From: Phycisphaerales bacterium
Lineage (GTDB): Bacteria; Planctomycetota; Phycisphaerae; UBA1845; PWPN01
Direction of reading: 5' to 3'
DNA length: 64,000 bases
NCBI GenBank assembly: GCA_012729595.1
Contig: JAAYCU010000283.1
Location: 4-64,003, forward strand
In this document: one piece after another, positions 2,484 to 61,240 of the stretch
Layout: each line of letters opens with the position of its first letter
Position numbering within the stretch: position 1 is the first letter of the stretch
Program-made: the position numbers and the translations under genes
Notes under the pieces: generated by a model
What the model was told of the DNA's origin: nothing
The model's database searches: none
Seen by the model: the letters and a program-made list of their open reading frames with translations, nothing else

Positions 2484-5400
2484 TTAGGGCTCCGGGAATG
2501 GCGGGTCTACGAGAGGGCGTGGGCCCCGGGCGGGGTCCAGTACCATGCCGGTCTTCCGTGCGATTAGTTGCCGCCACTGCTTGGCGCTGGCCTGCTCCGA
2601 GGTCAGGTTGTACCAGCGAAGGGCGCCGTGGTCGGTGACCGCAAATAGGAAGTTCTGTGTGTTTTCTTCGGTTGTACCCCGGCTGAAGCTCAAGGCTATG
2701 ATCGGGTGTGTGCTTTCCAGGGGTGCACCGAGAGTCGCTATCGATGGGGTGCCCTCCGTGTGGTTTATTGTCTGCGGTAGTTCGTAGACATGTATTCGGT
2801 TGCCGCAAGCCACGGCCAGCAGCGGGCCTCCACGTTCGGCGGCCTGAGTTTGGACCGTGAGCCGACTGGGCGCGGAGGGGTCGGTCCCCGTGGGAGATTC
2901 TATTGTGCCTATTGACCGACCATTGCTGGCGGACCACAAGGTGACGTGTCCGCCGTTATGTCCAACGGCCAGGATGGAATCTTCCGGCGGGCAGAATAGC
3001 ATGGAGCGGATGGGTTGCCCGGTATTAATCTCGCAGACGTGCTCGAAGAACTCTCCGGTGTGGTTGATTACGACACGTCCGAGGGCGTCGGCGATTGCCA
3101 GCAGCGATCCGTCATGGTTGAAACGTAGCAATGCCGGTCGGCCGGTGAGCAGACCGATCTGGCCGAAGATGTCAGCCTCGCCGGACGGACCCACATTATG
3201 CAGAGTGATACGTAAATCGGCATGGGGAATGGCCGCCAGCCGCCCATTGGCGGAAAGGGCGAATGTGCGCGTGGCCGTCGTCGGCAAGGTCCAGCTTCGT
3301 CGCAGTTGGCCCACGTCGAAATCGAAGACGCGGGCCTGATCTCGCCAGTTGATTTCCATCAAGGTATCGCCATGCGCACTGAGTCGCCATTGATCGCTCG
3401 GGTCGTATGAGGCAATGGCCTCGCGAGTTTGGCTGAGATCGAGCGGATCGATCGGCGTCCAGACATAATTCTCGTTCTGGCGGGTAAAGGTGACAATCAG
3501 AGGTTTTTCCGAGACGCACAGGTCGTCGGTGGTCAACGGATCGTTCAGGAATGACGGCAGGCTCGGCAGGTATTCCGCTCGGAAACCCGGTGGCGGTTGC
3601 TCATGCAGGTCGTAGACGTACAGCCAGTCGTTTCTGGTCGGATCAGCCAGGCGAATGAAGGCGAATTGCCCATCAGCGGTCATTCCGGTCCGCTGTAAAT
3701 CTGCCGAAGGGGTCAGCAGGCGATACATACGTTCGCTTCCGTTTCTCACCCAGACCGATGCCTGGTAAAGAGTCTCCTCCTGATGGTCGCCGGCGATTCG
3801 TTCCGTGCAGACCAGTCGGCCCGCGGCGCGGTCGGCGGATACGGGAAAGCGAGCATTCAAGCCGGTCAGGATTTCGGGTGTTGACAGGGCGGTTGGTAGA
3901 CCAACCGATGCCGCGATCTGATTCACGATCTGTTTTGTGGCCACGTCGACAAAAGTAATTTGATTGTCGTCCCAGAAGCAAAGGGTTTGTCCGTCCGTAA
4001 TGAGTTGGGCATCGTGCCCTCGGGCTTCAAAAAAGGTCGGCGGGGAGGCGTGTATGTTCCAGAGGCGGATGGACTTGCCGGAGAGTTGCTGGCCGAAGGT
4101 TTCCGAGCCAACAACCAGAAGATGGCCCCCGTCTGGACCGAATTCCATGTATACTGGGGCGACCTGTTGGCGACGTCCGGCTTCCTCTGCTCGCAGAATG
4201 CTGACCAGCCGGGGTAGTGGTACGGAGTCGGCAACGTCGAAAACCGTGATTTGCCCAAGCAGGTCGGTAACCGCCAGGTACGAGGAGGCGGCCGAGGCCG
4301 CGAAACAGAAGCCCACCGGTTGACCCAGGAACGGCAAGCGCAGAAGGTCGCCGGTGTGCAGGTCAAAGATTTCCAAGACGCCCCGCGAGGCAAGGGCCGC
4401 GAGATATCGGCCGTCACCGCTTATCTCCGCCGGCATTGGCGACCGGATGCTTTGCAGAAGGCGGGGGGGCTGCTCCTCCGTGAAGTCGTAAACCTCGATC
4501 CGATACCAGTTTGGTTCCTGGTTGCCGCTGACAGGTTGAGTTTGGGCAGTGGTTGGTGCGGGGGTGGCGGACATGAACACAACTACCCCGGTATCAACGG
4601 CCAGACGAAGCTGAACGATCCTGCCCAGCCCGGTCAAGGGCTCATCATGTAAAGGATATCCGTCGGTCGTCCAGAACTCCGCTATGTCGGATTGCTCGTG
4701 CGTATGCAGGGTCAGCATCTTGCTGCCGTTGCGGTTGAAGCCTACCCATTTGAGTCGGCCAGCATTCCTGGTCGGCACCGGTTGCTCGGTACGCAGGACG
4801 GGATCTATCAGCCTTATCTGGTCGTCCGCGGTACCGACCAGCAGCATATGTCCGGCCGGGTCGAAGGCGAATGCCGACGGTGTATCCGCCAGCCGGTAGC
4901 GTCCGTGCAAGGGGGCCAGTTCGTGTAAAACCATACTGAGCGGGAGGCTCGAAGATGCGGCGTCCGAGTTATTTTCCGTCAGGCTTTCGGCATACCAGAG
5001 AGCGCTTTGTAGATAATCACCGCGCTCGGCCGCGGCTTGCGCGATATCCCGGGGCGATACATGCGGTTCGTGATGCATGTCGTGACGGGAGAGATGGACC
5101 CCTATCAGTATCAGTCCCGACAACACCCCGGCCAGTGCCGCGGTGAACGCCCAGCGGGCCGCTATCGGTTTCGTACTCCACCACAGGCCCAGACGCCCGA
5201 CCCTTTTTGCGTGGATCGGTTTACCGGCCAGCCAGCGATCGAGATCGTCGGCCAGCGCGCCGGCGTTGGCATACCGTTGGTCAGGGTCTTTGGCCAACAT
5301 GCGTTGAACAATAGTTTCCAGCGGGCGGGGGATGGCCGGGTTACGCGTGGACAGCGCTATCGGTTGATGCACGGCGATGGCTCGCAACAAGCCTTCGCGC

Positions 5401-17560: not shown

Positions 17561-18307
17561 CTACATATTCAATCCGCCGTCCACAGGCAAGACCTGCCCG
17601 GTAATATACCCGGCCTCCGGCGAGGCCAGAAAGGCCACGGCGGCGGCCACGTCGTCCGGCTCCCCGAACTTCTGGCAGGGGATAATCTGTTTCACTCCCT
17701 GCTTGACCTTGTCCGGCAGGACGTCGGTCATCTCCGTGGCGATGAAACCGGGAGCGATCGCGTTACAGGTGATATTTCGCCGCCCGAGCTCCTTGGCCAC
17801 CGTCTTGCTGAAACCGATCACCCCGGCCTTGCTGGCCGCGTAGTTCGCCTGCCCCGCGTTACCCATCATCCCCGAGACGCTGGCCATGTTCACGATCCGC
17901 CCGTACCGGGCCCGGACCATGTAGCGACTGACCGCCCGGGTCAGCAGGAAAATCGAACGCAGGTTGACGTTCATCACCATGTCCCACTGCTCGTCATCCA
18001 TGTTCATAAACAACCCGTCGCGGGTGATGCCGGCATTGTTTACCAGGATGTCGATCTTGCCGAATTCCTCGACGACTTGTTCCACCAGCGCGTCGACCGC
18101 TTCCCGATCGGTTACGTTCAACATGCGGGCCACGATTTTGCCCGGCAGACCTTGTTGTTGGGCATCCTGGACGAGCTTATCGAGCCCTTCCGTATTCAAG
18201 TCCACCGCAACAACGGTGGCCGACCGGCCGGCCAGTTTCAAGCAGATCGACCGGCCGATGCCCCGGGCTCCCCCCGTCACGATGGCAATTTGATTGGCCA
18301 ATGGCAT
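17561..18307 (-). CDS. fabG: 3-oxoacyl-ACP reductase
   Basis: SDR motifs TGGARGIG, NNAG and YAASKAG. The ATG at 18307 is preceded by GGAGAA, so the ORF-track start at 18334 is probably too far upstream. Confidence 0.93.
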   Translation of the reverse strand: MPLANQIAIVTGGARGIGRSICLKLAGRSATVVAVDLNTEGLDKLVQDAQQQGLPGKIVARMLNVTDREAVDALVEQVVEEFGKIDILVNNAGITRDGLFMNMDDEQWDMVMNVNLRSIFLLTRAVSRYMVRARYGRIVNMASVSGMMGNAGQANYAASKAGVIGFSKTVAKELGRRNITCNAIAPGFIATEMTDVLPDKVKQGVKQIIPCQKFGEPDDVAAAVAFLASPEAGYITGQVLPVDGGLNM

Positions 18308-55047: not shown

Positions 55048-55185
55048 AGTTTCAACTCCTCAATAGCTAATTAGACGCCTAGTGCTGTATTATAACAAGG
55101 CCGGTGCTGGGGTACATTTCTACCAGAAAGTGGATACATCTGAATTATTGACGAAACCCGGCTTTCGGGGTTCCAATAGACGGTC

Positions 55186-55860
55186 ATGTGCGGGCGTTAC
55201 ACGATTGTCGATCCCGGACAGGCGGCCGACATGCTGGAGCCGGACGAGATAGAGGCCGACCTTCGCCGCCCTCGGTACAACATCGCCCCGACCCAGAAAG
55301 TACCGGCCCTGCTGGTGCGCAACGGGCGGCGGGTATTGGCCGAGATGCAATGGGGACTGGTGCCGGCCTGGGCCCGGGACAAGGCTATGGGCGTCCGTCT
55401 GATCAACGCCCGGGCCGAAACCCTCTCAGAAAAACCGGCCTTTCGTAACGCCTTGCGCAAGAGCCGCTGCCTGATCCCGGCCGACGGATTCTACGAATGG
55501 CAAAAACAGGGTGCCCGCAAGATTCCCATGTATATCCGCCTGATCGGTGGACGGCCTTTTGCGTTCGCAGGTTTGTTCGAGCTCTGGCGAGGGCAGGATG
55601 AGGAACTGCTGTCCTGCACCATCATTACCACCGAGGCTGACGAGCCGATCCGGCCGATCCATGAACGCATGCCGGTGATCCTCCCTTGCGAGCTGTACCG
55701 ATCCTGGCTTGACCCATCTTTGAATGATAAGGACGCTATAAGTTCATTGCTTCGGCCGGTGGAAGGGCGGATGCTGGAAGCCTATCCTGTATCGTCGCAT
55801 GTCAATTCGCCGCGTAATGATGATCCCGGCTGTATTATGCCCTGTGACGTGAAAGAATAG
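55186..55860 (+). CDS. SOS response-associated peptidase (SRAP/YedK family)
   Basis: N-terminal MCGRY with a catalytic Cys2, plus NIAPTQ and GFYEW. Confidence 0.88.
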   Translation: MCGRYTIVDPGQAADMLEPDEIEADLRRPRYNIAPTQKVPALLVRNGRRVLAEMQWGLVPAWARDKAMGVRLINARAETLSEKPAFRNALRKSRCLIPADGFYEWQKQGARKIPMYIRLIGGRPFAFAGLFELWRGQDEELLSCTIITTEADEPIRPIHERMPVILPCELYRSWLDPSLNDKDAISSLLRPVEGRMLEAYPVSSHVNSPRNDDPGCIMPCDVKE

Positions 55861-55865
55861 CGGGC

Positions 55866-56498
55866 TTATCGCGGCATCTGGTCACTGCGCAGGTTGTCCG
55901 CATCGGCCACGCCGTCGCGGAAGGTGAATTGTCCGTCTACGCCGGCACTGATGAAAATGGGTTTGCCATGATTGGCGGCCACCGCCTGCCATTCGATAGC
56001 GACTCGACTACGGGCGGTTAGGCAGCGTAGCGGACGACCCCATGCATCGCGTACCGTGCCCCATTTGCCGAGTTCGGCGCCTTCGGGTGGAACCCGCAGA
56101 ATCATCGGAATGGTATCCAGGATTTCCCGCGAGGCGGGTACGTCCGCCAGGGCGGCGATGACGCGGCGGCTGCTTTCGGCGGGATCGTCCTTGCTTGGCA
56201 GGTGATTGGGCTCGGTGTCGGCCGGTTGAGTGGCCGGGGGGAATGGCCACGTGCCGGTCGCCTCGTGGTAGGCCGTCAGGGCTTTATCCAGGGTGGCCAG
56301 CAAATCCCAGACCTGTCGGTGCTTCAGATCACCCTGCACGGAGTGAATGCCCAAGGCGACCACGACCAGCACCAAACCGAGCAGCGCGGCGGTAATCAGC
56401 GTTTCCGTAAAAGTCACCCCCCGCCGCCGACGGCTTCCAGCCCGCGGCGCAAGCGAGGGATCAACCATGCCCGCCGGAAACTTCGCCAAGGATGTCAC
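55866..56498 (-). CDS. Type II secretion/type IV pilin-like pseudopilin (GspG-like)
   Basis: The prepilin cleavage/methylation motif RRG|VTFTETLITAALLGLVLVVVAL has Glu at +5. C-terminal DAWGRPLRCLT...FISAGVDGQF resembles GspG. The start is 56498 or 56468. Confidence 0.7.
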   Translation of the reverse strand: MTSLAKFPAGMVDPSLAPRAGSRRRRGVTFTETLITAALLGLVLVVVALGIHSVQGDLKHRQVWDLLATLDKALTAYHEATGTWPFPPATQPADTEPNHLPSKDDPAESSRRVIAALADVPASREILDTIPMILRVPPEGAELGKWGTVRDAWGRPLRCLTARSRVAIEWQAVAANHGKPIFISAGVDGQFTFRDGVADADNLRSDQMPR

Positions 56499-56543: not shown

Positions 56544-57563
56544 TCACGTTTCAGTGTTCGTTCTTTTTTCCAGAATCTCAACCCGATCGCCCTTGATCCG
56601 CAGACGCCCCTCGGCGAATAGGCGGATGGCCTCGGGGTAGGCCAGACATTCCTGTTCAAAAACGCGAGCGGCCAGCGTGTCGGCATCGTCGTCCGGCAAG
56701 ACCGGAACCTTGCGTTGCAGGATGATCGGCCCCGCGTCGTATTCGTTGTTCGCGAAATGCACCGTGCAGCCGCTCTCTTTCTCGCCGGCGGCCAGCACGG
56801 CCTCATGCACGTGGTGCCCGAAGAAACCCTTGCCCCCATGTCTGGGCAGCAAGGCCGGGTGAATGTTCATCACCTTGTCCAGCCAGCGGTCCGGAATCCG
56901 CCAATAACACGTCCACCCCGCCTGACAGACCAGATCGACCTTGTATTCATCCAGCGTCTCGGCGATGAGCCGGCTGAATTCATCCACGTCCGGGTGTTCT
57001 TTCTTGCGAATGACCTTGACGGGCAGCCCGGCCGCCTGGGCCCGCTCGACCCCCTTGACGTGCGGAAGCGAGGAAATCACCACCACGACCTCGGCATCAA
57101 GCCGGCCGGCGTCGATTTCCTCAACGAGATTGACCAGCGTGCGTCCGCCGCCGGAAAGTAATGCGCCAAGCCGAATCGATCCCACCTCCTCAAGAATGAA
57201 ACGCTCAACTTCTTTGATAAACAATTCGGCTTTGCGAAGGATATCCGCCGCGATTTCCTGGGGATAGTCGTTTCGCAAGCCATAATCCCCAACATTTCGT
57301 TCATCGAAGGCCAATATCAGGTGCTGATGCAACTCCTGTTTAATCAATCCCTTGCTGACAAATTCTCGGCCAAAGGCACTGATGACCGCGCTATGCCTGG
57401 AAAAACACAAACCCCGGGATAGAAGCGCGGCCTCGGCCAGGTAAAACATAGCATAGTAAGCTCGTGAGGTCGCAAAATCGGAATGCCCAATCTCAGCCAA
57501 CCGTTTGGCGGCCGCCAAACTTCGCCGACCTTTCTCCTGCAATTGTCGGACTTCCGATTTCAT
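56544..57563 (-). CDS. purN: HEPN domain fused in frame to phosphoribosylglycinamide formyltransferase (PurN)
   Basis: Residues 1-~125 are HEPN-like helices (AYYAMFYLAEAALL, HSAVISAF, ERNVGDYG). Residues ~129-339 are PurN (LLSGGGRTL, MNIHPALLP, EYDAGPIILQ). The 339-aa ORF is uninterrupted. Confidence 0.8.
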   Translation of the reverse strand: MKSEVRQLQEKGRRSLAAAKRLAEIGHSDFATSRAYYAMFYLAEAALLSRGLCFSRHSAVISAFGREFVSKGLIKQELHQHLILAFDERNVGDYGLRNDYPQEIAADILRKAELFIKEVERFILEEVGSIRLGALLSGGGRTLVNLVEEIDAGRLDAEVVVVISSLPHVKGVERAQAAGLPVKVIRKKEHPDVDEFSRLIAETLDEYKVDLVCQAGWTCYWRIPDRWLDKVMNIHPALLPRHGGKGFFGHHVHEAVLAAGEKESGCTVHFANNEYDAGPIILQRKVPVLPDDDADTLAARVFEQECLAYPEAIRLFAEGRLRIKGDRVEILEKRTNTET

Positions 57564-57889
57564 CCCACAACCACCCCTTCATGCCGCGTGTTCACAAGAA
57601 ACGGCGTATAGTCGTGTTCATACTCATCGAGATCGACCGGCAGGGCGGATATAAGCTGATCGTATTCAAGGGACAACCGACTGGCGATCGGATTGATGCG
57701 ATGCAATTCTTCCCAAAAGTCCCCCAAAGTCTGAAGAACGACAAGGATGTCAAGATCCGAATCGTCATCGGCCTCGCCGCGTGCTCTTGAACCGTAGAGA
57801 ATGACCCTGTTCAATCTGGAACCATACATTTGCCGCAACTCGGCAACAAACAGCTCCAAGGCGCTTTTCCATTTGGAATCCGTGCTCAT
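57560..57889 (-). CDS. Minimal nucleotidyltransferase (MNT, MntA-like antitoxin-type)
   Basis: LYGSRARGEADDDSDLDILVVL matches GSxxRG...DxD. Length 109 aa. An ATGA overlap links it to the downstream HEPN ORF. Confidence 0.8.
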   Translation of the reverse strand: MSTDSKWKSALELFVAELRQMYGSRLNRVILYGSRARGEADDDSDLDILVVLQTLGDFWEELHRINPIASRLSLEYDQLISALPVDLDEYEHDYTPFLVNTRHEGVVVG

Positions 57890-57916
57890 TTATTCCATTG
57901 TACCATTCCGATGATT

Positions 57917-60900
57917 CTATTGACAATCATCATTATCTGGCGAAAAGACACAGATACTCATAGAACAACTATACCCGTCGATTTGACCTTGAAAATCGGG
58001 ATCGGGGATATCTTCAGAAACCTGAGTCAATTCACTTGTGAGGGTTTCATGGCAGATGTAGTCCTGATAAGCCTGTACCGCCTCGGCTACCGGGCCGGTG
58101 GTGTTGATGCGCAGGCGAATGCGGGCCTCGTAATCGAGCCGAGCGCTCTTGCGGGCGTTCTGGATCAGGTTGACCACGTCGCGGGCCAGGCCCTCGGCCT
58201 TCAACTCCTCGCTGATTTCCGTACTGAGGACGAGCACGACCTGCGGGCCCTGCGCGGCGGCCCAGCCCGGTTTGGCCTGGAGCGTAATCTGCACGTCCTC
58301 CGGGGCCAGTTCGACGGTTTGACCGGCGACGGTGATGGTCACCTTGCCTTCCCGGTCAAGCTGTCGACGCAGGGCGGCCGCATCGGCCTTGGCCAAAGTC
58401 GGTTTGATCCGCGGGGCCAGCTTGCCGAACTTGGGCCCGAGGGTTTTGAAGTTGGGCCGAATCTCGTAGGTGACATACTTGTCCGCGTCGGTGGCGAAAT
58501 CGATCTGCTTGACGTTCAACTCATCGGCGATCAGGGGCAGGTGGCCTCCGAGCCATTGCCGATGGTTCGGATCGGCCAGGACCAGCTCGACGACCGGCAG
58601 CGGCTGGCGAACCTTGATCTTGGCATCCATCCGGGCCGAGCGGCCCAGCGAGGCGATCTCGCGCACGATGGCCATCTCCTCCCGCAACTGTTGATCCATA
58701 CGCTCTTCGTCGGCCCGCGGATAATCGCACAGATGCACGCTCTCGGGGGTGTCGGCGAATTGGTCGCGCATGAGGTTCTGATACAGCGTCTCGGCGAAGA
58801 ACGGCGTGAACGGGGCGATCAGCTTGCTCGCGGTCACCATCGTGGACCAGAGGGTCTGGTACGCGGCCCGCTTGTCGGCATCCATCCCCGAACGCCAGAA
58901 CCGGTCGCGCGAACGGCGGACGTACCAGTTGCTCAGGGCGTCGACGAAATCGACCAGCCGGCGACAGGCCGGGTAATTTTCGTAGCCATCCATGGCCGCC
59001 CGCACGTCGGCGATGGTCTGGTTCAGCTCGGCGGTGACCCAGCGGTCCAGCTCGCTCAGTTGGGCCTGCGAATTGGCCGCGTCGATGGGCTTCCAGCCGT
59101 CGATGTTGGCGTAGATCACGAAAAAGCTATAGACGTTGTAGAGTTTGATGAGAAACTCGCGCTGGTCGGTGGCGATGGTGTTTTCCTTGAACCGCGCACC
59201 CGTCCACGGTGCCTGGCTGGAGAGCATCGACCAGCGCATGGCGTCGGCCCCCTCGCGGTCGAAGATGTAGGTCGGCTCCTTGTAGTTGCGCTTGCTCTTG
59301 GAAAGTTTTTTTCCGTCCTCGCCGCCGACCAGGCCGAGCACGATGCAGTTGCGGAACGGATGGGGATAGGGTTTCTCGAAAGTGTGGTCGTCAAAAAACG
59401 ACTTGGATTGGCTCTGCCCCGTTTCCCACGACTTCGATCGGAAAGAATCGGGCTTGAACAGCATCGTGCTGATGGCCAGCAGCGTGTAAAACCACCCGCG
59501 GGTCTGGTCGATGGCCTCGCTGATGAAGTCGGCCGGGAAGCGCTGTTTGAACAGCTCCGCGTTCTGGTGCGGATAGCCCCACTGAGCGAAGGGCATGCAG
59601 CCGCTGTCGAACCAGCAGTCGATCACCTCCGGCACCCGCCGCATCCGAGCGCCCCGGGCAAACGGCGAATCGTAGGTAATCGCGTCGATGTACGGCTTAT
59701 GTACCTTCAGGTCGTCGATCAGGTCGGGGTTGTCGCGTTTGGCTTTTTCCCAGACTTCCATGCCGCGTGCGCCGGGCTTGGCCAGCAGTTCGGCGTAAGA
59801 GGCGACGGCCTCCTGCTTGCCGGTCTTTTCGCATTCCCAGATCGGCAGCGGCGTGCCCCAGAACCGTTCACGTGAAAGGGCCCAATCGACATTGTCGGCC
59901 AGGAAATTGCCGAACCGCCCGTCGCGGATATGCTCGGGCAGCCAGTTAATCCGGCCGTTGTTTTCCAGAAACGCATCGCGGAATTCCGTCGTGCGGACGA
60001 ACCAGCTTTTACGTGCGTACTGGATCAGCGGATCCTCCTCCGCCCGCCAGCAGAAGGGGTAATCGTGGTGATACTGCTCGCGTTTAAGCAGCAGGCCGCG
60101 ATCCTTGAGATTTCGGATGATGTCGTGATCGGCCTCCTTGCAGAAGCGGCCGGCAAAATCCACCGCCTCGGGCACGAACGTACCGTCCGGCGCGATCAGT
60201 TGCAGAAAACCGAGTTCATTTTCCCGGGCGACGCGATAGTCATCCTCGCCGAACGCCGGGGCCAGATGCACGATGCCCGTTCCGGTATCCAGCGTTACAA
60301 AATCGGCGGTAATGATTTCATAGGCTTTCCCGCCGGTCGGCTTGGCATAGTCGAACAGCGGCTCGTATTTCATCCCCGCCAGTTCCGCGCCCTTACAGGT
60401 TCGGACAATCCGAACATCCTTTTCGAGATCGATGGGCAGGCCCTTGAAGGTAGCCTCAAGCAGTTGCCGGGCCAGGATGAATTCCTCATCCTCGAAGGCC
60501 ACCTGTACGTACTCGACGTCGGGATGGACGGCCAGGGCGACGTTGCTTGGCAGTGTCCACGGCGTGGTCGTCCAGGCGAGGAAGCTTGTCTTAGGCTTAT
60601 CCTTGAGACGGAAACGCACGGTTATGGATGGATCGTCCACCTCCCGATAGCCCTGGCCGACCTCGCCGGACGACAGGGCGGTCCCGCCTTGTGGCCACCA
60701 CCAGACCACCTTGTGCCCCTGGTAAAGCAGGCCACGGCGGAACAGGGTAGCCAGCGCCCACCAGACGCTTTCGACGTACGACTGATGGTAGGTGACGTAG
60801 GCTTCCTTCAGGTTGATCCAGAAGCCCAGGCGGCGGGTGAGTTCCTCCCATTCCCGCGTGTAGCGAAAAACGCTCTGCTGGCAGAGGTGGATGAATTTCT

Positions 60901-61240
60901 CCACGCCGTACTGCTCGATCTCGGCCTTGGTGTGGATGCCGAGCTCCTTGCAGACCTCGGCCTCGACGGGCAGGCCGTGAGTGTCCCAGCCGGCCTTGCG
61001 GTGGCAATAGTGGCCGCTCATCGTGCGGTAACGCGGGAACACGTCCTTGATGATCCGGGTCAGGCAATGCCCCGGATGCGGCAGCCCGTTGGCCGTCGGC
61101 GGCCCCTCGTAAAATACGAAAGGTGTCGCTCCCTGTCTTTGCCGCAGGGACTTTTCGTAAATATCGTTGGTTTCCCAGAAACGTAGTATTTCCCGCTCGG
61201 AAGTCGGGAAATCAAATTGTGCAGGCACTTCCTTAAACAT
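57917..61240 (-). CDS. ileS: Isoleucyl-tRNA synthetase
   Basis: The HIGH region PPTANGLPHPGH, the KMSKS variant KLSKSKRNY, a CP1 editing insert, and a length of 1107 aa. Confidence 0.95.
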   Translation of the reverse strand: MFKEVPAQFDFPTSEREILRFWETNDIYEKSLRQRQGATPFVFYEGPPTANGLPHPGHCLTRIIKDVFPRYRTMSGHYCHRKAGWDTHGLPVEAEVCKELGIHTKAEIEQYGVEKFIHLCQQSVFRYTREWEELTRRLGFWINLKEAYVTYHQSYVESVWWALATLFRRGLLYQGHKVVWWWPQGGTALSSGEVGQGYREVDDPSITVRFRLKDKPKTSFLAWTTTPWTLPSNVALAVHPDVEYVQVAFEDEEFILARQLLEATFKGLPIDLEKDVRIVRTCKGAELAGMKYEPLFDYAKPTGGKAYEIITADFVTLDTGTGIVHLAPAFGEDDYRVARENELGFLQLIAPDGTFVPEAVDFAGRFCKEADHDIIRNLKDRGLLLKREQYHHDYPFCWRAEEDPLIQYARKSWFVRTTEFRDAFLENNGRINWLPEHIRDGRFGNFLADNVDWALSRERFWGTPLPIWECEKTGKQEAVASYAELLAKPGARGMEVWEKAKRDNPDLIDDLKVHKPYIDAITYDSPFARGARMRRVPEVIDCWFDSGCMPFAQWGYPHQNAELFKQRFPADFISEAIDQTRGWFYTLLAISTMLFKPDSFRSKSWETGQSQSKSFFDDHTFEKPYPHPFRNCIVLGLVGGEDGKKLSKSKRNYKEPTYIFDREGADAMRWSMLSSQAPWTGARFKENTIATDQREFLIKLYNVYSFFVIYANIDGWKPIDAANSQAQLSELDRWVTAELNQTIADVRAAMDGYENYPACRRLVDFVDALSNWYVRRSRDRFWRSGMDADKRAAYQTLWSTMVTASKLIAPFTPFFAETLYQNLMRDQFADTPESVHLCDYPRADEERMDQQLREEMAIVREIASLGRSARMDAKIKVRQPLPVVELVLADPNHRQWLGGHLPLIADELNVKQIDFATDADKYVTYEIRPNFKTLGPKFGKLAPRIKPTLAKADAAALRRQLDREGKVTITVAGQTVELAPEDVQITLQAKPGWAAAQGPQVVLVLSTEISEELKAEGLARDVVNLIQNARKSARLDYEARIRLRINTTGPVAEAVQAYQDYICHETLTSELTQVSEDIPDPDFQGQIDGYSCSMSICVFSPDNDDCQ

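Follow-up and report, generated by a model that had tools for sequence, protein, structure and literature searches.

Can a domain of a toxin family become part of a housekeeping enzyme, and does it then control that enzyme or simply depend on it? This question is raised by a stretch of 64,000 nucleotides from a Phycisphaerales bacterium (assembly GCA_012729595.1, contig JAAYCU010000283.1; hereafter the window), in which the HEPN partner of a minimal nucleotidyltransferase (MNT) continues in frame into PurN, a glycinamide ribonucleotide (GAR) transformylase. MNT-HEPN modules rank among the toxin-antitoxin (TA) systems of highest abundance. On the minus strand of the window, ileS (isoleucyl-tRNA synthetase, 57917..61240) is followed after 27 nt by the gene for MNT, a putative antitoxin or modifier of 109 aa (57560..57889), and then by an open reading frame (ORF) of 339 aa (56544..57563, stop codon included), which overlaps the MNT gene by 4 nt. 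The overlap reads ATGA (57560..57563) and combines the TGA stop of the MNT gene with the ATG start of the long ORF. The latter encodes a HEPN domain (residues 1-127, 57183..57563) and PurN (residues 130-339, 56547..57176). MNT thus lies 5' of HEPN and is tightly coupled to it, as expected for a two-gene MNT-HEPN operon. An earlier interpretation made from the letters alone (the sequence-only reading) had given the coordinates of both ORFs, of the overlap and of GAGGAGGTG at the domain junction (57183-57191), all of which proved correct. It had also stated that no stop codon separates HEPN from PurN, in full agreement with the single ORF in the window and with the same open frame in seven other assemblies.

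The assignments of the two encoded proteins hold as well. MNT matches PF01909 (E 9.3e-9, 36.0 bits, cut-off 21) and PF18765 (34.3 bits, cut-off 26.9) and carries an exact GSX10DXD motif (G33-S34, ten residues, D45-L-D47; ~57749-57793) that is kept at 8/8 fused loci. It is homologous to the nucleotidyltransferase chains of PDB entry 9xbd (E 2.6e-15) and aligns over its full length with PDC-S09 in PADLOC (E 5.7e-32), where the PDC models form a candidate phage-defence set of putative function, without curated cut-offs. For the N-terminal part of the fusion, residues 6-121 match profile positions 2-116 of 117 of the PF05168 HEPN family (E 2e-14, 54.2 bits, cut-off 22). In addition, of the positions conserved to 90% or more among free UPF0332 HEPN proteins, 22 of them invariant and 18 near-invariant, the window HEPN retains 40/40, so that the HEPN call of the sequence-only reading stands. 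A family profile including the window HEPN recovers the HEPN chains of 9xbd (E 2.5e-40) and 2hsb (AF0298; E 7.9e-16). The match to PADLOC PDC-M05B, a candidate system without curated cut-off, is weak (E 0.0013). PDB 9xbd unites four HEPN chains and four nucleotidyltransferase chains homologous to the window MNT in one entry; 9xbc contains a HEPN with Phe at the position of Tyr94. Our literature search did not find a paper on 9xbd or 9xbc, and a text search of the literature did not find the term 'UPF0332'.

The canonical HEPN RNase motif Rx4-6H is absent from the window HEPN, where the corresponding segment is R89-N-V-G-D-Y94 (57282-57299) with Tyr94 at the His position. The sequence-only reading had raised this as a caveat against RNase activity, but the point was mis-framed: the motif is normal in free UPF0332 HEPN proteins and does not indicate local decay. 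In free family members from Planctomycetes, cyanobacteria, Chloroflexi, archaea and others, G92-D93-Y94 is invariant and R89 nearly so. HEPN proteins of the AF0298 type have been described as lacking the His of Rx4-6H and possessing a second conserved His upstream (Anantharaman et al. 2013, PMC3710099). This second invariant His is present in the window HEPN (H57, 57393-57395). Judged from these residues, RNase activity of the domain is neither supported nor excluded.

The C-terminal part of the fusion is, by profile and predicted fold, a bona fide PurN. Residues 131-323 score 165.1 bits against TIGR00639 (equivalog cut-off 150.1) and match PF00551 with E 2.1e-39; the catalytic residues N233, H235 and D276 are found in all complete fused sequences, and free-standing PurN proteins from metagenome-assembled genomes (MAGs) of Phycisphaerae share 78-81% identity with the PurN part. 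An AlphaFold2 model of the 339-aa fusion, computed from an input alignment with a depth of only four sequences over the HEPN part, predicts both domains confidently (mean pLDDT 91.7, pTM 0.72), and Foldseek places the PurN part on solved GAR transformylases with TM scores of 0.83-0.92 (normalised by target length). The catalytic residues and the GAR transformylase assignment had been anticipated by the sequence-only reading. In the model, the last HEPN helix spans residues 102-127 and strand 1 of PurN residues 130-136, leaving a 'linker' of about two residues.

A survey of related genomes for the same architecture yielded seven independent assemblies with a HEPN::PurN ORF and an overlapping MNT gene, eight in total from three clades, and unfused relatives too. 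All sequences are metagenome-derived. Among the fused relatives, HEPN identity to the window ranges from 53 to 98%. A search of 5.8 billion protein clusters returned three further HEPN+PurN proteins (96%, 68% and 63% identity), and the contigs of all three carry an overlapping MNT gene upstream. Scanning DNA with a degenerate pattern of HEPN invariants and the SGGG loop of PurN gave 59 loci, most of which were free HEPN genes followed by an SGxG that had arisen by chance; ORF filtering left four more fusions, two in GTDB species genomes (L013 and L016, Planctomycetales MAGs) and two on metagenome contigs (L040 and L051). Note that the number of fusions is a lower bound: a junction-spanning protein search missed the known fusions P0002 and P0003. 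A protein search of 50%-clustered representatives gave no fusion representative. The order ileS-MNT-HEPN::purN is found in every fused locus with enough sequence, and the 4-nt MNT/HEPN overlap (ATGA, or GTGA in two) in all of them. As the two genes of free MNT-HEPN cassettes share 4 nt too, the overlap is a trait of the family and not a peculiarity of this locus. Within clades, dN/dS according to Nei-Gojobori is 0.05-0.14 for HEPN, 0.06-0.11 for PurN and 0.14-0.24 for MNT; between clades the estimates are saturated. In 7/8 fused sequences all 40 conserved HEPN positions are kept. By these comparisons the fusion is not an assembly artefact, because the same open frame recurs in eight independent assemblies at 53-98% HEPN identity; it is real and under selection.

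The exception to HEPN conservation is L016 (CAYNYK010000001.1). Compared with its 96%-identical sister L013, its fused HEPN carries the replacements R34H, Y37D, E88A and N90I, all of them single-base changes and those at residues 34 and 37 at family-invariant sites, while MNT and PurN are intact. These changes may reflect toxin inactivation in one lineage.

How the fusion arose is best approached from the genomic site. In the unfused L008, a complete Planctomycetota genome, ileS and purN are adjacent with a 78-nt gap, and in the unfused L077 the GTG start of purN overlaps the TGA stop of ileS (GTGA). Between L077 and the fused L001, IleS is 81% and PurN 82% identical. In L005-L007, the sister group of the window PurN, the gap between ileS and purN holds a FitA-like ribbon-helix-helix (RHH) gene together with an ORF of 141 aa; in L005 (5189-5949) the RHH gene encodes 62 aa and the 141-aa ORF is without Pfam match. 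Because a sister lineage thus holds a different putative TA pair in the same gap, the ileS-purN junction is, on the evidence of gene order, a recurrent landing site (hotspot) for TA cassettes. In close free homologues of PurN, the N-terminus ahead of the RLGVLISGGG strand cannot be aligned and differs in length, from 1 residue to more than 17, which fits repeated remodelling of the 5' boundary of purN at such a hotspot.

Base composition sets the cassette apart in the window clade. There, GC content at third codon positions is 0.51-0.60 in MNT and HEPN versus 0.70-0.78 in PurN, a difference of some 20 points, with HEPN and PurN residing in one and the same ORF, and in the window itself overall GC content is 0.50 for the HEPN part and 0.61 for the PurN part. 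By this measure the window clade carries a cassette of foreign composition; in the other two fused clades the compositions already match. The dip in the GC profile, over 57190-58050, takes in the ~130 nt at the end of ileS as well, a segment low in GC in the unfused L008 too. We rejected the idea that this low-GC end of ileS (57917-58050) is a new tail derived from the cassette, as the C-terminus of IleS is homologous in unfused relatives and L008 shows the same dip. Likewise rejected was a cassette that lacks its own stop and reads into the flank upon every insertion: related free cassettes share conserved C-terminal tails and stops, the tails of free HEPN proteins extending 9-23 residues past the equivalent of F115, with one sequence truncated directly after it. 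The closest free MNT-HEPN cassettes sit in unrelated genomic contexts. In one of these loci, L009 (free MNT-HEPN, P0121), which is closest to the fused cassettes of the P0002 type, direct repeats of ~170 bp flank both sides. The repeats, at 1-292 and 1019-1232, contain a CCCCCC-N7-GGGGGG hairpin and could indicate a repeat-element or cassette-array context.

Taken together, we favour, with a probability of about 0.5, an explanation in which a mobile MNT-HEPN cassette inserted at the ileS-purN junction and captured purN by in-frame fusion. A horizontally mobile cassette of the UPF0332/PF05168 type would have landed where ileS and purN adjoin tightly in a planctomycete of the Phycisphaerae type. 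There, initiation of the ancestral purN probably relied on upstream translation, because purN abuts ileS and in L077 even overlaps its stop. Insertion of the cassette would silence purN, except where coupling or fusion joined it to the final gene of the cassette. In-frame fusion would then be the surviving variant, in which read-on from HEPN preserves PurN expression. The chain of expression would run from a promoter through MNT to HEPN::PurN, and the 37-kDa fusion would be the working source of GAR transformylase. A candidate promoter is available: a sigma-70-like site (TTGTCA-18-TACAAT, 57897..57926, minus strand), predicted from the consensus only, matches 10/12 consensus positions and has a TG extension before the -10 element. 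It overlaps the last codons of ileS, which include the -35 element. A TGGTAnAAT-like extended -10 element is also found 5' of MNT in the fused loci L001, L002 and L051, and all three fused clades thus have one. Because the predicted promoter ends 8 nt before the MNT ATG, the MNT mRNA is suggested to be leaderless or nearly so.

According to the same explanation, the MNT-HEPN pair would still work as a module, MNT binding and probably nucleotidylylating HEPN. For type VII systems of the RX4HXY type, nucleotidylylation of the HEPN partner by MNT has been described (PMC11586414, PMC13000451). Tyr94 is a candidate target site, on account of this analogy (PMC11586414, PMC13000451) and of the Tyr-to-Phe variant in 9xbc. 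The fusion would tie the synthesis of HEPN and PurN 1:1 and would mainly benefit the module: truncating mutations or deletion would be costly, because PurN would be abolished as well. The data do not call for regulatory cross-talk of HEPN or MNT with PurN catalysis.

Several points weigh against this explanation. The fused state is polyphyletic in comparisons of PurN, IleS and the cassette. In neighbour-joining (NJ) trees, built from short proteins, the PurN domains of the three fused clades are monophyletic in 0/100 bootstrap replicates and the smallest clade enclosing them has at least 47 taxa; by IleS and PurN identities, an unfused lineage resembles each fused lineage more closely than the other fused clades do. 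The tree of MNT plus HEPN places the free cassette of L009 inside a fused clade with 99% bootstrap and gives fused monophyly 0%. The history therefore involves either several origins, or lateral spread by recombination in the conserved flanks, or many losses; a single origin is favoured by the identical junction length, several by trees and composition. Independent accidents do not explain an identical linker length in three clades, and if the fusion recurred, or spread laterally and was retained, it could itself be advantageous, an outcome that is not predicted if the fusion is purely selfish or an accident. MNT scores below the MntA equivalog NF047752 of NCBIfam (33 bits versus a cut-off of 60) and is hence related to that family, not a member of it. 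Toxicity of UPF0332 HEPN proteins and their modification by MNT are extrapolated from RX4HXY-type families and an unpublished PDB entry. Some free PurN may be made, given that weak or non-canonical sites may serve for initiation in planctomycetes. Finally, we detected neither a second purN nor a purT within the 64-kb window, to which this search was confined. A weak 'formyltransferase-like' tblastn match at 17963-18286 was ruled out as a second PurN and is FabG.

With regard to known systems, among the closest parallels are the type VII HepT/MntA modules of Shewanella, Aphanizomenon and Legionella. As in these, MNT lies upstream of a tightly coupled HEPN gene, MNT has the GSX10DXD motif, HEPN forms a bundle of helices whose motif loop contains a conserved Arg and Tyr, and the cassette is mobile and occurs in many contexts. 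In contrast, the window HEPN belongs to PF05168/UPF0332 (AF0298 type) instead of DUF86/HepT, its motif is R-x4-Y without His instead of RX4HXY, its MNT falls below the MntA equivalog cut-off, and a housekeeping enzyme is attached to HEPN covalently. By analogy, we regard the window module as related to type VII HepT/MntA and outside the characterised families, its toxicity and AMPylation being putative. The closest solved relatives, 9xbd, 9xbc and 2hsb, have the blocks SRAYYAMFY, HSAVI and RNxxDY in common with the window HEPN; they differ from it as free-standing HEPN proteins of 125-131 aa without an enzyme domain. In FhepTA, a fused MNT-HEPN protein, a gene boundary has been lost too, and the fusion alters the control of HEPN (NAR 2026, PMC13000451). 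There, however, the antitoxin is joined to the toxin, whereas in the window HEPN is joined to a metabolic enzyme and MNT is separate.

On the enzyme side, the trifunctional GART of animals, ACT-PurU and RNase H::PurN proteins demonstrate, like the window protein, that the formyltransferase fold tolerates N-terminal partners. In those cases the partners are pathway enzymes, a small-molecule-sensing domain and RNase H, none of them part of a TA module whose own modifying enzyme is encoded upstream. A HEPN domain on an enzyme of de novo purine biosynthesis has a precedent in PurF of Methanospirillum hungatei, which carries a C-terminal HEPN of unknown function, reported to be unique to this one species (PMC3261824). 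The enzyme, the end at which HEPN is attached and the archaeal host differ from the present case, and no link to MNT has been described. The novelty claimed by the sequence-only reading therefore requires a correction: a HEPN domain on a purine enzyme is not unprecedented (PMC3261824), while the joining of the HEPN of an MNT-HEPN pair to PurN seems unreported. Our full-text literature search did not find the latter, and the HEPN-PurN architecture appears to be undescribed.

Two further families of in-frame fusions came to light. A planctomycete clade of PurN proteins of 345-367 aa carries an N-terminal RNase H (PF00075/PF13456) in frame (P0102, P0109, P0110, P0112, P0113, P0116, P0118 and P0120; locus L071, 5001-6086). 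These proteins group together on the PurN tree as a sister clade, with one sequence of 253 aa (P0106) nested among them, and the only locus examined, L071, does not lie beside ileS. RNase H::PurN and HEPN::PurN together imply that PurN in this phylum gained N-terminal domains of nuclease families at least twice. The same UPF0332 HEPN family is also found in frame with a type IV pilin-like protein (P0253, 441 aa; P0277, 484 aa; loci L074, 3630-5326, L075 and L076), again with an overlapping MNT gene upstream and with two pilin-like genes before MNT. At residues ~129-150, its junction ...QRPNG|FTLVELAVSLVVIG contains a prepilin cleavage motif, and HEPN would, on the strength of this motif, be a 128-residue 'leader peptide'.

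A rival explanation, which we treat as tentative and rather unlikely, is that HEPN has been domesticated as an N-terminal regulatory domain of PurN. Nucleotidylylation or binding by MNT would tune the activity, oligomeric state or stability of PurN and could, for example, make purine synthesis de novo responsive to the adenylate pool. A role as ATP sensors has been suggested for type VII modules (PMC13000451). HEPN and PurN are under equally strong purifying selection, and three host clades, between which unfused relatives lie, carry the fusion. The linker is of fixed length and nearly rigid, with two residues from helix to strand (pTM 0.72). PurF of M. hungatei provides a second purine enzyme with a HEPN, and formyltransferase-fold enzymes with N-terminal regulatory domains exist. 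PurU has an ACT domain, and PurU structures were among our fold matches. However, free cassettes are equally conserved, so that low dN/dS need not come from PurN, and L016 replaced the family-invariant residues Arg34 and Tyr37 while its PurN remained unchanged. Fusion of the same HEPN family to an unrelated pilin-like protein points to read-through into any downstream gene, and the packed ileS-purN junction explains retention of the fusion without regulation. The data fit a TA cassette that captured purN expression equally well.

A bolder and doubtful version of this idea holds that MNT and HEPN have been co-opted more than once as a sensor of nucleotide state for purine synthesis. MNT and ATP would modify Tyr94, and the state of this residue, or HEPN dimerisation under its control, would switch PurN activity or stability, resulting in adenylate feedback. 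If this were true, the recurrence in three clades and the rigid linker would be convergent or laterally selected adaptations.

The domain junction itself (residues 121-133, 57165..57203) bears on another possibility, namely that read-through is incidental, HEPN merely lacks a stop, and free PurN of ~23 kDa is made by internal initiation near the junction, in the window at the GTG of V127. The sequence-only reading had seen in GAGGAGGTG (GAGGAG-GTG, E125-E126-V127) a fossil ribosome binding site and GTG start of a once separate purN. This interpretation is not supported. The sequence is limited to the window and its 96% relative L004; at the same position, species of the same clade have GAAGAGCGC (L013, GAAGAG-CGC) and GAAGAACGC (L016, GAAGAA-CGC), and the other fused clades have unrelated sequence. 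The GTG is absent from L013, L016, L001 and L002. Moreover, the GGAGG core resembling a Shine-Dalgarno (SD) sequence overlaps the GTG, leaving zero spacing, and the purines are the codons of a clade-conserved Glu-Glu that closes the last HEPN helix, with V127 at its end. In L013, the frame contains neither ATG nor GTG nor TTG from residue 115 up to the SGGG loop; because of this lack of a canonical start near the junction, PurN of this species should only be obtainable as the fusion, barring non-canonical initiation. The sole start codon in the junction region of L001 is an ATG at residue 135, inside strand 1, and L051 likewise has only an ATG one residue before SGGG.

Internal initiation can be argued from GAGGAG-GTG in the window and L004, from GGAG-N6-TTG at residue 123 of L002 and from a GTG at residue 128 of L016. 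Moreover, the HEPN::pilin fusions would seem to require an N-terminal prepilin signal. Against this stand the starts missing or misplaced in L013, L001 and L051, the zero spacing in the window and the non-conserved positions of the candidate starts. In addition, stops and frameshifts at the end of HEPN would be expected if PurN were initiated independently, and residues 121-133 evolve almost neutrally (dN/dS about 0.6-1), yet the frame is open and free of stops and indels in 8/8 sequences, and GDYG and SGGG are exactly 41 residues apart in every fused locus. We therefore consider internal initiation as the normal source of PurN improbable.

Very improbable, in our view, is a dead passenger, that is, an inactivated HEPN kept as supplier of promoter and start for PurN while MNT is being lost. 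The four replacements in the otherwise 96% identical HEPN of L016 and the absent canonical His could be read in this way. Missing His is normal for UPF0332 proteins, however; dN/dS is low for both HEPN and MNT, all 40 conserved positions persist in 7/8 sequences, and GSX10DXD is present at all loci. That a sequencing or assembly error erased a stop or frameshift between separate genes has only the general prior of such errors in metagenome assemblies in its favour and is, given the same open frame in eight assemblies from different samples and pipelines, dismissed as extremely improbable.

The neighbourhood on the other side of the fusion was also inspected. On the 3' side of purN lies a gene for a 210-aa protein (55866-56498, minus strand) that weakly matches the prepilin N-methylation motif (PF07963, E 0.002), and next to it a divergent gene for an SOS-response-associated peptidase (SRAP, 55186-55860, plus strand); both are syntenic in L004, L013 and L016. 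L004 harbours a HigB-like toxin and an HTH_3 antitoxin (2874-3381) between the SRAP gene and a gene for a tRNA-binding domain, where the window has just a gap of 139 nt (55048-55185). The pair represents a strain-level presence/absence polymorphism of a TA system 1.5 kb from the fusion locus.

The fusion of toxin and enzyme is thus, as far as sequence comparison can tell, real and selected, while regulation of PurN through MNT is a hypothesis to which we give little credence. For the PF05168/UPF0332 branch of HEPN proteins, whose function has hardly been treated in the literature, the locus constitutes a natural experiment: in several lineages a domain of a toxin family is welded to an enzyme of core biosynthesis and maintained by selection, with the modifying enzyme still coupled upstream. 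The ileS-purN junction is documented as a hotspot at which sister lineages have received TA cassettes of differing kinds, and purN is not the sole downstream gene to which members of this HEPN family have become fused. On one reading, a selfish cassette may have become undeletable by capturing the expression of a housekeeping gene; on the other, the fusion may be a 'Rosetta-stone' link of type VII-like modules to purine and ATP homeostasis.

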